64,000 nt of DNA from an uncultured Nitrososphaeraceae archaeon (GCA_963837175.1 CAWIMJ010000012.1:32001-96000); one strand, 5' to 3'. Positions 56,378-62,498 are shown, counted from the stretch's first letter. Made by a program: numbers and translations. The notes: generated by a model from the letters alone, not told the origin.

Positions 56378-57553
56378 TTGCTAATATCCCATATAGCTGA
56401 TATTCATCTAGGATATTCACAATTCAATTTGCAGGAAAGAGAGGAAGACATCTATGAAGTGTTTGAAGAAGCAATTGACAAATCTATATCAGAGCATGCA
56501 GATATCGTCATATTAGCAGGTGATATTTTTCATACACCACGACCAAGTGGTTCTTCAATAATAAAGCTGGCAAATGAGCTCAAGAAACTAAAGGAAAAGT
56601 CTATTCCTGTCTTTTTTGTCCTAGGAGAGCATGATATTAATAGAATGCAAGATGTTCCTGTACCCTACGTTTTTCATAATCTCCGATTGGCAACTAGATT
56701 GAAGGAGAATCAACCATTACGGCATAGAAACATAACTATCTTTGGTTTTGATAAGGAAAGAAAGAGTAATATGCAGAATCTGTTAGAACGATTCCAATTC
56801 ACACAGGAGCTAGCACAGCAACAAAAAAAAGATGTAGGAGGATCAAATAATAAAAATATTCTTGTCCTTCATCAGGGCCTTACAGATTTTAACAAATTTG
56901 CTGGCGAACTCAACTCTACTGACCTTCCAAAGGCGTTCGACTATTATGCAATGGGTCATTACCACGATCATATCGAAAAGAAATTCGATTATCTTGATGG
57001 CTTAATATCATATCCAGGCTCGCTGGATTTAACTCCTAGTGAAGGAATTAAAGAAGTTGACAAGGGATTTTGTCTTGTAGATACTTCTGGACAAGAAGTA
57101 AGAACCAATTGGATAAGGTTGGAGAAAAGGAGGCCACAATTTTCAGTAAAGGTAGATTATGAATTGCTAGAACAGGATTTGGCCGATCTTGTAAAGAAAA
57201 CAAGAAATTACGAAAAGAAACCTATAGTATTATTAAAAATAATAGGAAAAGAAATTGATTCAAAAACCATAGCATCAAAGTTAGTAAAATTAAATTCTTT
57301 CTGCTTGCATTATGTATGGCAACCATTAGAAGACTACATAACCTCACCTCTATCTTATGACGAGAAACCATTTGATATGGACAATGAATTACACAAACTA
57401 GCAAAAGAGGCATTAAAGTCAGAATATCTAGCTTCACTTGCTATAAAGGAGATATTGCCTTTGGCAGGCCGAGGAGATTCGAAAGTGACATTAGATCTGC
57501 TTTGGAAAATCTACAATGACATAAAAGCATATGGAGGAGAATTAAAATTTTAA
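56378..57553 (+). CDS. mre11: DNA double-strand break repair nuclease Mre11
   Basis: ADIHLG, AGDIFH, GEHD, VLHQG, MGHYH, YPGS. Confidence 0.92.
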   Translation: MLISHIADIHLGYSQFNLQEREEDIYEVFEEAIDKSISEHADIVILAGDIFHTPRPSGSSIIKLANELKKLKEKSIPVFFVLGEHDINRMQDVPVPYVFHNLRLATRLKENQPLRHRNITIFGFDKERKSNMQNLLERFQFTQELAQQQKKDVGGSNNKNILVLHQGLTDFNKFAGELNSTDLPKAFDYYAMGHYHDHIEKKFDYLDGLISYPGSLDLTPSEGIKEVDKGFCLVDTSGQEVRTNWIRLEKRRPQFSVKVDYELLEQDLADLVKKTRNYEKKPIVLLKIIGKEIDSKTIASKLVKLNSFCLHYVWQPLEDYITSPLSYDEKPFDMDNELHKLAKEALKSEYLASLAIKEILPLAGRGDSKVTLDLLWKIYNDIKAYGGELKF

Positions 57554-57554
57554 C

Positions 57555-59651
57555 ATGATAAAGGACATCAACCTACATAATTTCATATCGCATAGAGATA
57601 CTTCACTATCTTTAGACAAGGGAATCACGATTTTTGTAGGACATAATGGATCAGGTAAATCGAGTATAATAGATGCAATAACTTTCGCTTTGTTCGGAGA
57701 GCATACAAGGAAATCCAATAAGAACCTTATACTTAGAGGGGCTTCCTCATCTTTCACTCGCCTAAACTTTTTTGTTAATTCAAAAGAATATAGTGCTTAC
57801 AGACAGATAGGATCTCTAGGACAATCAATATCGGCAAAATTAGATCTTGTATCAGACTCAAACAATATTATAAATAAACCCATCGTAGCAGGCGAAAGAA
57901 AACAATTTGGAGAGTCTATGAGTGCAGAAGTTGCAAAGACTCTTGGGGTAGACTATAAGAAATTGAAAGTAGCGACTATTATACAGCAAGGAGAACTTAA
58001 CAGAATAATAGAGTTCCACCCTAAAGACTTCAAAGAACTTCTCAATGGAATGATAGGTATGGATAGATTGGATCTGGCTTATCAAACAATGCATGAAATA
58101 ATTGATGGCTTCAGGGAAAGACTACGTGAGCATAATAATGGATTTGATGATAAACAAATTGAATCAATACGCAATAGCATACAACACAATATTTCTGAAC
58201 TCTTTGATTCTGAAAGCATTCTAAAGCAATTAGAAAATGAAAGAAATAGAGCAAATACAAAGTTGCGTTCAATTGAAAAAGAAATAGAACGTATTGAACC
58301 ATTGATACTAAAGGCAAGAGAACTTCAAACAATGGAAAACGCTCTTATGAAATATCTCACTGAAAAAAAGGATTGCATTTTAGACGACATTGTAAAACTT
58401 GATCGCATAATAAAAGAGGCACATACCTCGATACAAATAGTTTCAGGAAAGGAAGAAATCAGAATTAACCTTCAAATGGTAAGATCTGAAGTTGAAGACG
58501 CAGAGCTCAGAATCATAAACAATGAAGGAGAATCTGGAAGACTAAAAGGATTATTAGAATTTGCCAAAAAACTAGAAATTAAGGATGGAAAATGTCCTGT
58601 CTGCAATTCAAAGGTTCAAACGATTAACAAGATGTTAGATACGGATCATATCAAAAATGAAATAAAACAGAAGAATGATGAACGATCAAAACTATTAACA
58701 GAGAGAAGTAATGCAAAGAAAGAAGAATCTTTTCTAGAGGAAAAAGAAAAGCCAATTGCAGCATCTGAAAAGTTTCTTGCTTCAAATAATATCTCCAACC
58801 TTCAAGATATAACAAAATTAGAAAATGACCTTTTTCATAAAAGGAATGATTTGTCAAAACTTCCCAAGAATATTGTAGGAATAGGTGAAGATCCTACGGT
58901 ATTCATGATTGACGACTTTTCAAAATCCTTAGTCGAGAATATTATAAAGCTTAGATTTGAAGTAAAGAACTTGCGAATACAAGATTATATAGATGCAAAG
59001 CTCAATCATACCCATCTTTCTGATGCTTTGCTTGAAATTAATATAAAAATAGGCTCATCTCAAAAATCTATTCAGCAAGCTACAAAATTTATTGATGACT
59101 TTAATAGAATCCTTACAGAACTCGAAAATGCTCCTAAATACATTGACATATTGGAAAAAATTCGATCAACTGTGTTTAATCGTGATGGGTTGGTAGGATT
59201 AAGTCTTCGTTCATGGGCATTAAAAACGATCTCTTATAAGGCTTCAGAATATGCAACCATGTTTAATATAGGAATTTCAAGAATAGATTTGACAGAGAAA
59301 GTCAAAGATGTAGATATCATCTGTTATGGAAGACATGGAGAAATTGACATGAATTGTCTAAGCGGGGGCGAAAAAGTTGCAGTAGCACTTGCACTCAGAC
59401 TTGCAATTGCATATATGATGGGTTCAAGTAAACTCGATTTCATAATTTTAGACGAACCAACAGCTCATTTAGATGCAGAAAGACGAAAATCCATGGTAAA
59501 AATTATTTCGGAAGCATTCAAAGATGGAAATGGACCTCTTTCTCAAATTATTATAATCACTCATGATGCAGAAATCTTTGAGGATTCGGAGGTTGATAGA
59601 ATTTATCGTTTCACAATGAGTATTGATGGTTCGAATGTATCGACAGAATAG
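57555..59651 (+). CDS. rad50: DNA double-strand break repair ATPase Rad50
   Basis: Walker A GHNGSGKS, Q-loop IQQGE, zinc hook CPVC, signature LSGGE, Walker B ILDEPT, ITHD. Confidence 0.95.
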   Translation: MIKDINLHNFISHRDTSLSLDKGITIFVGHNGSGKSSIIDAITFALFGEHTRKSNKNLILRGASSSFTRLNFFVNSKEYSAYRQIGSLGQSISAKLDLVSDSNNIINKPIVAGERKQFGESMSAEVAKTLGVDYKKLKVATIIQQGELNRIIEFHPKDFKELLNGMIGMDRLDLAYQTMHEIIDGFRERLREHNNGFDDKQIESIRNSIQHNISELFDSESILKQLENERNRANTKLRSIEKEIERIEPLILKARELQTMENALMKYLTEKKDCILDDIVKLDRIIKEAHTSIQIVSGKEEIRINLQMVRSEVEDAELRIINNEGESGRLKGLLEFAKKLEIKDGKCPVCNSKVQTINKMLDTDHIKNEIKQKNDERSKLLTERSNAKKEESFLEEKEKPIAASEKFLASNNISNLQDITKLENDLFHKRNDLSKLPKNIVGIGEDPTVFMIDDFSKSLVENIIKLRFEVKNLRIQDYIDAKLNHTHLSDALLEINIKIGSSQKSIQQATKFIDDFNRILTELENAPKYIDILEKIRSTVFNRDGLVGLSLRSWALKTISYKASEYATMFNIGISRIDLTEKVKDVDIICYGRHGEIDMNCLSGGEKVAVALALRLAIAYMMGSSKLDFIILDEPTAHLDAERRKSMVKIISEAFKDGNGPLSQIIIITHDAEIFEDSEVDRIYRFTMSIDGSNVSTE

Positions 59652-59772: not shown

Positions 59773-60246
59773 TTATCCTCCTGTCATTCTGGTGAATTTA
59801 TTGTTTCTTTTCATGGTGGAAACATAGTCGATATTTGCAAGAGCAATAATCGCTGATTCTCTTACTTCTTCACTTTCATCTTTCAATGCTTCATTGAGTA
59901 TTTCTCTTCCTTCTTCAGATCCAATCACACCTAATGCAACTGCTGCTTCATGTCTAACAAAATAACTTGGATCTGATTTAACAGCATTGAAAAGAGCGGG
60001 CATAGCAGTCTGGTAGCCAATCTGACCCAAAGAAAAAGCTGCCTCATGTCTTACCAATGCGTTCTTGTCATCCTCGAGGACTCTACTAATAGGTTCTACA
60101 GCATCTATACCGGACATATCTGCTAATATGCATATAACACGAGTTCTAATAACACTATCTTCATGACTCAACAAATCCTTGAAATATTGTTTGTTTTGAT
60201 TATCGTATTGTAGTTTCCATTTCTTCGAATAATCTGATCCTGACAT
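59773..60246 (-). CDS. HEAT/PBS-lyase repeat protein with two His-Glu motifs (deoxyhypusine hydroxylase-like half protein)
   Basis: LVRHEAAFSLGQIG, FVRHEAAVALGVIG, EVRESAIIALA. Confidence 0.85.
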   Translation of the reverse strand: MSGSDYSKKWKLQYDNQNKQYFKDLLSHEDSVIRTRVICILADMSGIDAVEPISRVLEDDKNALVRHEAAFSLGQIGYQTAMPALFNAVKSDPSYFVRHEAAVALGVIGSEEGREILNEALKDESEEVRESAIIALANIDYVSTMKRNNKFTRMTGG

Positions 60247-60649
60247 CAGACTTTACACATCTTTCATCAATCATATTGATAACTGATTGGAAATCTCATA
60301 TCATAAATATTTGCTTATTGCGCTGACAGTATACCTGTTAAATAGTGTATATATTGTATAGATTATATAGTTTAGAATAATATGTCATATTATAGTTCTT
60401 CACAGTTTATTGACTCCACACAAACAACATAGAAGAAGAAAAAATTAGAGATGATAAAAATAAGAAAAGTCAGTATTAAATAGGTAGACAGATGAAAGTA
60501 GCTGAACCCATTATTTTCATGCATGTATATCTATTCTTATGGAATTCTTTAGAACGTAGCACAGATTTTATATTTTACGAATGTGTTATGAAATTCTCTT
60601 TTAACTTACCCACCACATTATTATAAAGCTGACAAATTATATTGATAGC

Positions 60650-61111
60650 ATGCGTTTAAGATACTGGCGATTAGGCATTACCGATGTTTTAGAGGCAAAG
60701 TACCCTATTGAAAAGGCTAATCACTGGGAAATTAAATGTATGCAAGGAGAATATCAACACTTTGGCGTTTTCTGGTATAAATTCGGTACACCTTATGATA
60801 AGGAACCTGTTCATGGCATTTGCTTCTATTATAACGAGATCCCACAAAAAACTGTAGAGGAGATCATAGAATTACTGCATACTAAATTCGGCGGAAAGAT
60901 TCTGTATAAACAAACAAGAGTTTTCTTACAAGGCTCAAAGGAGTTTGCTGATCCAAAATCTGTAGGAACACTCGCAAATGAGTTAAGTTTAAAATTCAAA
61001 TCACCAGTTGAACTCACTATCGAGTTTGAAAAAGTAACAAAAGAAGAACAAGAAAAAAATAGCTATAATTTGCCTTCAGGTAAGATGCTACCTATAGTAG
61101 GGCAGGACTAG
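60650..61111 (+). CDS. Conserved hypothetical protein
   Basis: 153 aa, globular composition, TATA-like TTATAAA upstream; no function recognised. Confidence 0.75.
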   Translation: MRLRYWRLGITDVLEAKYPIEKANHWEIKCMQGEYQHFGVFWYKFGTPYDKEPVHGICFYYNEIPQKTVEEIIELLHTKFGGKILYKQTRVFLQGSKEFADPKSVGTLANELSLKFKSPVELTIEFEKVTKEEQEKNSYNLPSGKMLPIVGQD

Positions 61112-61221: not shown

Positions 61222-61668
61222 CTATAAAGTAGCAGTGCTTTCTGGATAAGTATCTAGCATTGACTTTAACTTTGTTATCAAATTTGAAATGCTAACAGGT
61301 TTGCTGATAAAATCAATTACGTGAACAGATGGTATTACCTTTTTGAATTCATCCTTATTTATTTCGAAGGCTGTTATGAATGCAATTTTTGGAGACGATC
61401 TCCTCTCTTTTATTCTACGATATAATTCAAATCCGCTCATTTTAGGCATTCTAATATCAGTGAGAATAATATCGTAGTAATATTCAGAATGACTTTCAAA
61501 AGCCTGTAAAGCTGATTCACCATTAGAGAAAGTATCTACCTTGAAAACATTATCTGATTCCAAACCTCGTTTTATGATAGATAATATGTCCTTCTCATCA
61601 TCGACAACCATAATTCTGGGAATCAAATTTCCCCGTCGATTTTTACTCATAAAAATATTGTAGATCAT
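61222..61668 (-). CDS. Stand-alone response regulator receiver protein
   Basis: IMVVDDEKD, LTDIRMPKMSGFEL, FITAF, ISKP. Confidence 0.92.
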   Translation of the reverse strand: MIYNIFMSKNRRGNLIPRIMVVDDEKDILSIIKRGLESDNVFKVDTFSNGESALQAFESHSEYYYDIILTDIRMPKMSGFELYRRIKERRSSPKIAFITAFEINKDEFKKVIPSVHVIDFISKPVSISNLITKLKSMLDTYPESTATL

Positions 61669-61979: not shown

Positions 61980-62498
61980 TTGATATACCTGAGGCAAAGT
62001 GAAAATACCGTGTCTGCTACAAGTCAGGAAAACTGGATAAATCTCCTTCTTGAAGAAAAAATATATGATTTTAATAAATGGAGGATGAAAAATCTCATTA
62101 TTAGACCGGATATAAGCGGCAAGAATTTGTCTAACAAAGATCTTTCCGGAGCTTATTTTAATGGCGTTTCTTGTGTAGAAACAAATTTCTCTCACTGCAA
62201 TTTATCCAAGGTCAATTTTGTCCAAGCAGATCTCACAGCAGCTAATCTTGAGGAAACGAACCTTACTGATGCATTGTTAATGTATGCAGAAATGAAAAAT
62301 TGTAATCTTAGAAAGGCCACCTTGATTCGAACAAATCTCATGTGGACCAATTTGCAAAACTCTGATCTATCGGGGTGCAAAATGTCAAAGACAGTGTTAG
62401 TGGAGGCAGATATGAAGAATGCAAAAATTATTGATGTTGACAGAACTGGGGCTTATTTAAAATATGCTAAACTTGAAAAAACTGCTTGGCAAAATTAA
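61980..62498 (+). CDS. Pentapeptide repeat protein
   Basis: FNKWR followed by ADLTA/ANLEE/TNLTD-type repeats. Confidence 0.92.
   Translation: MIYLRQSENTVSATSQENWINLLLEEKIYDFNKWRMKNLIIRPDISGKNLSNKDLSGAYFNGVSCVETNFSHCNLSKVNFVQADLTAANLEETNLTDALLMYAEMKNCNLRKATLIRTNLMWTNLQNSDLSGCKMSKTVLVEADMKNAKIIDVDRTGAYLKYAKLEKTAWQN

Follow-up and report, generated by a model that had tools for sequence, protein, structure and literature searches.

Could a protein half the size of deoxyhypusine hydroxylase (DOHH) do that enzyme's work in archaea? The question is raised by a short HEAT-repeat gene near one end of a 64,000-nucleotide stretch of DNA from an uncultured, ammonia-oxidising soil archaeon of the Nitrososphaeraceae (GCA_963837175.1, CAWIMJ010000012.1:32001-96000), hereafter the window. 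Hypusine on IF5A is among the most specific protein modifications known. We conclude, with a probability of about 75%, that the encoded protein is a one-lobe homologue of DOHH working as a homodimer. We propose it as a candidate DOHH of ammonia oxidisers and related lineages rather than of archaea as a whole.

The available text of reviews and primary papers from 2012 to 2021 states that archaea possess deoxyhypusine synthase (DHS) and that some contain hypusine, with Sulfolobus acidocaldarius and other Crenarchaea listed among the latter (PMC5178350). The same text knows of no archaeal orthologue of DOHH (PMC5178350, 2016; PMC6105217, 2018; PMC8153317, 2021; PMC3306375, 2012), in line with an earlier note on this DNA, and DOHH goes unmentioned in the available text of a 2026 review (PMC13602936). 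Our own literature search, with most subscription journals outside its scope, found neither a report of an archaeal deoxyhypusine hydroxylase nor a statement on hypusine vs. deoxyhypusine in the initiation factor 5A (aIF5A) of ammonia-oxidising archaea. The link to DOHH has not gone wholly unnoticed, since JGI automatic annotation assigns the name "deoxyhypusine monooxygenase" to at least 15 of the 120 orthologue clusters listed. NCBI names the orthologues "HEAT repeat domain-containing protein," and the ESM Atlas clusters carry repeat names only.

The gene and its parts lie as follows, with the open reading frame (ORF) of the window numbered to 157 and the intact protein to 166 residues:

59773..60246, minus strand: ORF with an ATG start, 157 residues plus stop and four HEAT_PBS-type repeats; 3' part of the half-size DOHH-like gene, whose single-copy orthologue family we call family A.
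60200..60274, minus strand: 5' portion of the gene, shifted into a different frame, reading MIDERCVKSDVRIRLFEEMET and then a stop; N-terminal helix of the orthologues.
60211..60212: frame-breaking extra base, not present in contigs from two soil DNA runs of different studies.
60022..60054, minus strand: repeat 2 motif VRHEAAFSLGQ, residues 65-75; His67-Glu68 of the 157-residue ORF are H76-E77 of the 166-residue protein.
59929..59958, minus strand: repeat 3 motif VRHEAAVALG, residues 97-106; His99-Glu100 are H108-E109 of the 166-residue protein.
59839..59865, minus strand: repeat 4, VRESAIIAL, residues 128-136, in the predicted dimer interface.
59776..59799, minus strand: C-terminal tail KFTRMTGG, order-wide pattern F-[TA]-[RK]-[ML]-T-G-G; its last residues contact the partner chain in the predicted dimer.

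The earlier note had described the 157-residue ORF, its four repeats and its motifs correctly, though the ORF turned out to be the 3' part of a longer gene. Its nearest relatives are 94-97% identical, 166 residues long and start MIDERCVESDVRIRLFEEMETQYDNQ, and the text read in the other frame at 60200-60274 is the N-terminus of these orthologues. A contig from soil run X1 matched the window at 99% identity or more across 701 bases with one base fewer at 60211, and a contig from run X4, of a different study, had one base fewer at 60212. Without the extra base, the gene encodes 166 residues, of which 165 are identical to orthologue P0005. In the frameshifted copy, 13 N-terminal residues differ from the intact form, and this is of consequence, as the predicted dimer interface described below includes residues 9-24 of the intact protein.

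We consider the frameshift probably an assembly error because two independent soil metagenomes lack the base and the aIF5A gene of the same assembly is frameshifted as well. That gene (L007, G000:C47:75981-79163) is split into ORFs 1739-1888 and 1495-1662, both on the minus strand, by a one-base frameshift between its N- and C-terminal domains. Since aIF5A is essential and yet frameshifted, this assembly (3.81 Mb, 58 contigs, 34% G+C, 91% complete) appears to be indel-prone. A real frameshift, leaving in this one genome a decaying or N-terminally altered gene unable to pair, seems to us very improbable. It would account for the extra base being present in the assembly as given, and the interface residues do fall in the replaced N-terminal stretch; however, beyond the two soil contigs and the broken aIF5A gene, the ORF is otherwise undamaged, with 97% identity to orthologues. 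Contigs from RNA libraries of two studies span the body of the gene, a weak hint that the gene is transcribed, with depth uninformative on expression level.

Elsewhere in the same genome (L003, G000:C34:72984-76196), a HEAT_2 match in a 129-residue ORF adjoins a 145-residue ORF, and the two look like pieces of one longer gene. Resemblance to ORFs of ~830 residues in other genomes suggests a fragmented aminopeptidase-like gene, and its split may be a further frameshift in this assembly. The small HEAT ORF was rejected as a partner half for the window protein, being the tail of that longer gene and carrying no His-Glu (HE) pair.

The evidence for kinship with DOHH begins with the HE pairs themselves. 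We aligned 28 family-A sequences from seven families of the window's class (labelled f1-f5, f7 and f9) in the 166-residue numbering. Invariant in all 28 were V74, R75, H76, E77, A78, A79, S81, G83, Q84 and G86 around repeat 2, together with V106, R107, H108, E109, A111, G115 and G118 around repeat 3. Both HE motifs were present in all family-A ORFs recovered, and of the 11 strong matches outside the class, the seven that were fetched all had both HE motifs and a tail ending in (K/R)(T/P)GG. Three generic HEAT proteins fetched beside them had no HE. The conservation of both HE motifs on which the earlier note had staked its proposal was thereby borne out. The three motifs it had named are all present, but the Glu of VRESA in repeat 4 is not conserved in the family (E, D, K or N), where the Ser and Ala of that motif are invariant.

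As a chance control, we scored the two residues after the conserved V-R in VRxxAAxALG-type repeats of 166 generic HEAT proteins, drawn from high-scoring unrelated matches. HE occupied those positions in 8 of 1307 repeats, and five of the eight lay in one protein, the sole one with consecutive HE repeats. At such scarcity, two neighbouring HE repeats are not background. The tail F-x-[RK]-x-T-G-G is also conserved at the protein end, with ..APRP in its place in families f4 and f7. Its di-glycine terminus is reminiscent of ubiquitin-like modifiers; in the predicted dimer, the tail just packs against the partner chain.

DOHH, EC 1.14.99.29, is known as Lia1 in yeast, and the human enzyme is solved as PDB 4D4Z and 4D50. 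In DOHH, a single chain carries eight HEAT repeats that form two four-repeat lobes in a symmetrical dyad, according to the available text of PMC3306375 and PMC8153317. The window protein corresponds to one such lobe, as had been claimed: its HE pairs fall on repeats 2 and 3, the alignment columns match, and DOHH is its best natural relative of solved structure. A search of the PDB with the single sequence placed human DOHH (4d4z) as the top natural enzyme at 81 bits (E 7e-22), below designed alphaRep proteins. With the family profile, 4d4z was the best natural chain at 124.3 bits (E 3.1e-35), and the next natural chains were RPN2 (44 bits), YibA (42) and CpcE (30). All chains outranking DOHH were artificial alphaRep consensus designs, and 6veh is a computational design.

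We also built trees from 68 four-repeat units, aligned with the hidden Markov model (HMM) of the family; DOHH was sampled from the green lineage only, and there were nine generic outgroups. In a quick tree that included the HE columns, all HE-bearing units fell on one side of a branch (Shimodaira-Hasegawa-like approximate likelihood-ratio support 97). After removal of the four HE columns (111 columns, careful search), the split between HE-bearing units and the nine generic ones kept 89/96 support. The N- and C-terminal halves of DOHH formed a clade (100/99) apart from the archaeal units, and monophyly of family A was not rejected (approximately unbiased test, p = 0.39). The sister relation of the DOHH halves fits the earlier suggestion of a pre-duplication-like form. 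The topology fits two duplications of a one-lobe ancestor, a single one leading to eukaryotes and a recent one in an archaeon; it does not identify the archaeal family closest to DOHH.

A single lobe would need a partner to rebuild the DOHH site. We predicted a homodimer from two copies of the intact orthologue P0005, using the 28-row alignment and two Fe, with small molecules not scored. The homodimer scored 0.90 (runs of 0.89, 0.90 and 0.90), whereas the best of three controls reached 0.13; contact agreement was at least 94% and the partner pLDDT (predicted local distance difference test) was 92. It passed a calibration mark that 20 of 30 solved pairs attained, as did 1 of 23 single chains; these proportions are approximate here, since our own alignment and Fe were used. 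The predicted interface is symmetric and takes in the N-terminal helix (residues 9-24), residues 40-52 of repeat 1, residues 71-73, H76, E77, F80, residue 105 and H108, as well as residues 135-154 of repeat 4 and 160-166 of the tail. Pairing with HE residues in the interface, as the earlier note had envisaged, is thus what the model predicts. The model supports binding without showing it, and the predictor may have remembered the lobe-lobe packing of DOHH itself.

Nature also provides the fused form. Among the 21 proteins returned by a search for longer homologues, the informative ones were an algal DOHH (P0124) and P0121, a protein of 363 residues in which the family-A unit stands twice in tandem and four HE motifs occur; it is known from a single assembled contig (18 kb). 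Fourteen DOHHs of plants and algae are collinear with P0121, at 27-30% identity, and the four HE motifs share columns. Its halves group together (98/77) and, in the quick tree with HE columns, lie inside family A beside a member from family f2. An AlphaFold model of P0121 built with 14 DOHH rows superposed on 4d4z with a TM score of 0.84 (normalised to DOHH; root-mean-square deviation 4.5 Å, 297 columns), and other HEAT structures reached at most 0.53. P0121 begins with 23 hydrophobic, signal-peptide-like residues and a low-confidence linker; its start may have been called wrongly, or it may be a secreted or membrane-anchored protein. In a broad search of representatives, all of the 150 matches listed except P0121, P0179 and P0180 were long multi-repeat HEAT proteins.

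DOHH chemistry requires O2, and the distribution of family A lies within oxidase-bearing lineages. A single-protein query (E ≤ 1e-10) against 301 genomes of the window's class matched family A in 228, mostly in single copy. By family, the counts were f1 33/39, f2 175/180, f3 8/9, f4 3/3, f5 3/4, f7 4/9 and f9 1/1; no match was found in f6 (1 genome), f8 (14), f10 (10), f11 (8), f12 (17) or f13-f15 (5). Two of the f1 matches (G196 and G230, genus g7) were cross-matches to a second family, family B, described below. These tallies take in three unpublished genomes (G132, G231 and G283), on which no claim solely rests. Family A is near-universal in ammonia-oxidising Nitrososphaerales. A titled genome scan confirmed 567 of 599 pattern matches, and the best 80 loci, which were retained, came from Nitrososphaera, Nitrosocosmicus, Nitrosopolaris, Nitrososphaeraceae, Nitrososphaerales, Nitrosopumilales or unplaced metagenome-assembled Thermoproteota genomes. 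To look outside the class, we searched 401 genomes sampling the phylum with the profile, and 11 out-of-class genomes, all from families f24 and f43, had strong full-length matches (E ≤ 1e-58). The other matches in this sample were mostly weak and to ORFs of roughly 830 residues; three such long ORFs (779-805 residues) bear an HExxH zinc motif.

Haem-copper oxidase subunit I (COX1, PF00115) was found in f1 32/39, f2 172/180, f3 9/9, f4 3/3, f5 4/4, f7 9/9, f8 11/14 and f9 1/1. Three further matches, in f10 (1/10) and f12 (2/17), all had marginal E-values, and no COX1 was found in f6, f11 or f13-f15. Every class family with family A therefore also has the oxidase, and the seven families lacking a clear COX1 (f6, f10-f15; 41 genomes) yielded no family A. 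This co-distribution is consistency rather than a test, as relatives are not independent.

The genes next to family A bear on its substrate. Of 154 family-A loci, three have DHS-family genes next to family A. L154 has the class-wide DHS starting 56 nucleotides downstream of family A on the same strand, and L170 shows the same order. In L086, from genome G475 outside the class, DHS, a second deoxyhypusine synthase-family paralogue and family A lie within about 2.5 kb, with the second synthase gene divergent from family A across 75 nucleotides. The L154-type DHS is present class-wide, in 290 of 301 genomes (E ≤ 1e-50), with 58-73% identity among the matches listed. The adjacency is rare but telling, as it recurs in two distant lineages and involves the enzyme that makes the substrate of DOHH; together with the aerobic, core-gene distribution, it supports aIF5A as the substrate. 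In the window's own genome, aIF5A carries an SKPGKHGSAKA loop, located in the N-terminal ORF, in which we take the Lys preceding His to be the modified residue. The sole PF01916 gene there (L001, G000:C50:27217-28116) is a paralogue only 24% identical to the class-wide DHS. Both synthase types occur in at least three other genomes (G475, G642 and G643).

Against the reading of family A as a homodimeric DOHH stand several findings, which we weigh together here. The family-A HMM gave DOHH halves 60-78 bits (median 69) and generic HEAT windows up to 86 bits (median 52). Because generic windows can outscore DOHH halves, overall similarity must be dominated by the shared repeat, and we rejected whole-domain HMM scores as a discriminator since they did not separate DOHH from generic HEAT proteins. 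In the proposed comparison with DOHH and generic HEAT proteins, the family came out closer to DOHH by the PDB profile search and by the tree lacking the HE columns, with the caveat that the whole-domain scores overlap. When P0121 was refolded with archaeal rows only, all of which aligned to its C-terminal half, the lobes were confident and their arrangement was not (predicted TM score, pTM, 0.54), and the TM score to 4d4z fell to 0.41. The earlier superposition at 0.84 is consequently not independent evidence. In addition, the gene is frameshifted in its own genome as assembled.

Most PBS-lyase-type HEAT proteins are taken as non-catalytic adaptors or scaffolds, and family A could be another, with its HE residues serving folding, partner binding or structural-metal binding. 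Pfam matched the 157-residue ORF to generic repeat families only: HEAT_2 (PF13646; E 4.5e-23, 81.8 bits against a gathering score of 27.7), HEAT_PBS (PF03130; E 3.6e-15, 55.2 bits against 20.9) and HEAT (E 4.1e-14). NCBIfam matches fell far below their equivalog cut-offs (NblB 44.8 bits against 300, CpcE 25 against 330, CpcF 21.2 against 220, PRK09687 34 against 275). These matches, the overlapping HMM scores and the repeat-only names given by NCBI and the Atlas all suit an adaptor. Yet HE is scarce in generic repeats and both pairs are invariant here over deep divergence, DOHH stands out among natural solved proteins (124 bits against at most 44), and family A is confined to lineages with an oxygen reductase. 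We therefore judge a non-catalytic role improbable and likely see here a homodimeric DOHH-like di-iron enzyme.

The remaining adverse findings concern the substrate. Adjacency to DHS is rare, and in the other loci DHS and family A lie far apart; the class-wide DHS was not found in the window's own 91%-complete assembly. No true family A was found in the seven genomes searched of genus g7, which belongs to the window's own family, f1. In family f8, COX1 is present in 11 of the 14 genomes and family A in none, and family A was not found in most families of the 401-genome phylum sample. The genome of S. acidocaldarius, used as a control, had no HEAT_2 or HEAT_PBS match, so family A cannot explain hypusine there. 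The proposal that this is the one missing archaeal enzyme fails on these last two counts. As to g7, its seven genomes (G196, G218, G230, G249, G272, G275 and G290) are 93-98% complete, with family B in three and COX1 in three. Since COX1 was found in only three of the seven, the assemblies may be less complete than the stated figures indicate.

Family B is a second two-HE HEAT family of about 165 residues, with four repeats and HE on repeats 2 and 3 (VVKHEACFQIAAR and LVKHEAIESLGLM). It is about 30-33% identical to family A, ends in ..PSQIL, and lacks LGQ after its first HE. We found no published name for it. It occurs in 58 of 301 class genomes, in f1 (6/39) and f2 (52/180) only, sometimes in two copies; its loci include L053, L054, L055, L042, L051 and L176-L181. 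Family B was not found in the window's genome, where the window protein is the sole two-HE protein found, and it was accordingly rejected as a hetero-partner. Also adverse is that family B groups, weakly and with a long-branch warning (68/88), with the DOHH halves. Its existence and this grouping imply that the fold may serve other substrates and, along with the lineages that do without family A, weaken the case for aIF5A.

Family A itself might then be a DOHH-fold homodimeric oxygenase, with di-iron or another metal, whose substrate is different, for example some other modified lysine in a protein, a polyamine or an intermediate of a quinone pathway. The patchy family B speaks for a diversified scaffold, most genomes show no linkage of family A to DHS or aIF5A, with 151 of 154 loci lacking an adjacent DHS-family gene, and a hypusine-making Sulfolobus does without family A. 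Conversely, 126 family-A loci contained no MqnA/D-like ORF, and in the window's genome the MqnA/D-family gene is on another contig; a linkage to mqn genes was rejected on the absence of such neighbours. The sole pathway genes seen beside family A are of the DHS family, in two distant lineages, and HEAAF.LGQ and VRHEAA.ALG closely match the DOHH lobes. We regard another substrate as unlikely and deoxyhypusine on aIF5A as plausible.

Taken to its conclusion, the reading of family A as a homodimeric DOHH would work as follows. Two copies would pair head to tail, with the N-terminal helix and the C-terminal TGG tail each clasping the partner. The four HE motifs would then face each other and hold two iron ions, like the two lobes of a eukaryotic DOHH chain, and this di-iron centre would activate O2. 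The deoxyhypusine side chain, placed on aIF5A by DHS, would most likely be hydroxylated to hypusine. We hold this full mechanism, a half-size homodimeric di-iron hydroxylase of deoxyhypusinated aIF5A, to be evenly balanced between right and wrong. More tentatively, and with doubt somewhat outweighing belief, we suggest that aerobic Nitrososphaerales and their thermophilic relatives make hypusine with an O2-dependent, di-iron HEAT homodimer of 166-residue chains, a pre-duplication form of DOHH, and that the duplication was repeated independently in the lineage of P0121.

The window gene is monocistronic. Its surroundings contain:

56378-59651, plus strand: Mre11-like phosphoesterase and Rad50/SMC-like ATPase pair, convergent with the HEAT gene.
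60650-61111, plus strand: 153-residue ORF with no Pfam match, divergent from the HEAT gene.
61222-61668, minus strand: stand-alone response-regulator receiver protein, upstream of the HEAT gene.
61980-62498, plus strand: pentapeptide-repeat protein, upstream of the HEAT gene.

A Rad50-like neighbour was found in 13 of 27 phylum-sample loci (nearly all f2) and 11 of 80 Nitrososphaeraceae loci. The 153-residue ORF adjoins family A in 67 of these 80 loci, with none seen in more distant loci, and ends in ..LPIVG(Q/P)D in the window copy and two relatives. No link to the HEAT gene was seen for the response-regulator and pentapeptide-repeat genes.

If the half-size homologue reading is true, family A offers a testable archaeal hydroxylase candidate in cultivable organisms. 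It would also give mechanistic studies a minimal, symmetric form of this unusual di-iron enzyme built of HEAT repeats and would bear on the origin of eukaryotic DOHH via duplication of a one-lobe ancestor. Archaeal hydroxylation cannot have a single answer, since Sulfolobus contains hypusine and lacks family A.

Among known systems, the generic PBS-lyase HEAT-like proteins (E. coli YibA, 1OYZ; CpcE/CpcF; NblB) and the alphaRep designs share the repeat family and its helix-turn-helix repeat. The generic proteins lack HE pairs, are usually longer or variable in repeat number, and have no di-metal site that we know of. EpmC (YfcM) is not known to be related to the DOHH-like family. For bacterial EF-P, it provides a functional analogy only, namely the final hydroxylation of a modified lysine on an IF5A/EF-P factor (PMC6105217, available text). 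YibA lacks the active-site residues of DOHH, and human DOHH binds two iron ions through His56, His89, Glu90, His207, His240 and Glu241, as given in the available text of PMC3306375. Compared with DOHH, the archaeal protein has four repeats in 157 residues (166 when intact), and only the fusion P0121 has the eight repeats of a single DOHH chain. It also has an N-terminal helix (..LFxEMExxF/Y..) and a ..F-x-[RK]-x-TGG tail, both of which DOHH lacks. What the two have in common is a four-repeat HEAT_PBS-type unit with His-Glu on repeats 2 and 3, and the extended motifs HEAAF.LGQ and VRHEAA.ALG in the same alignment columns. DOHH joins two such lobes in about 300 residues, whereas the archaeal protein, with one lobe in 166, would need a homodimer; in its predicted dimer, HE residues lie in the interface.

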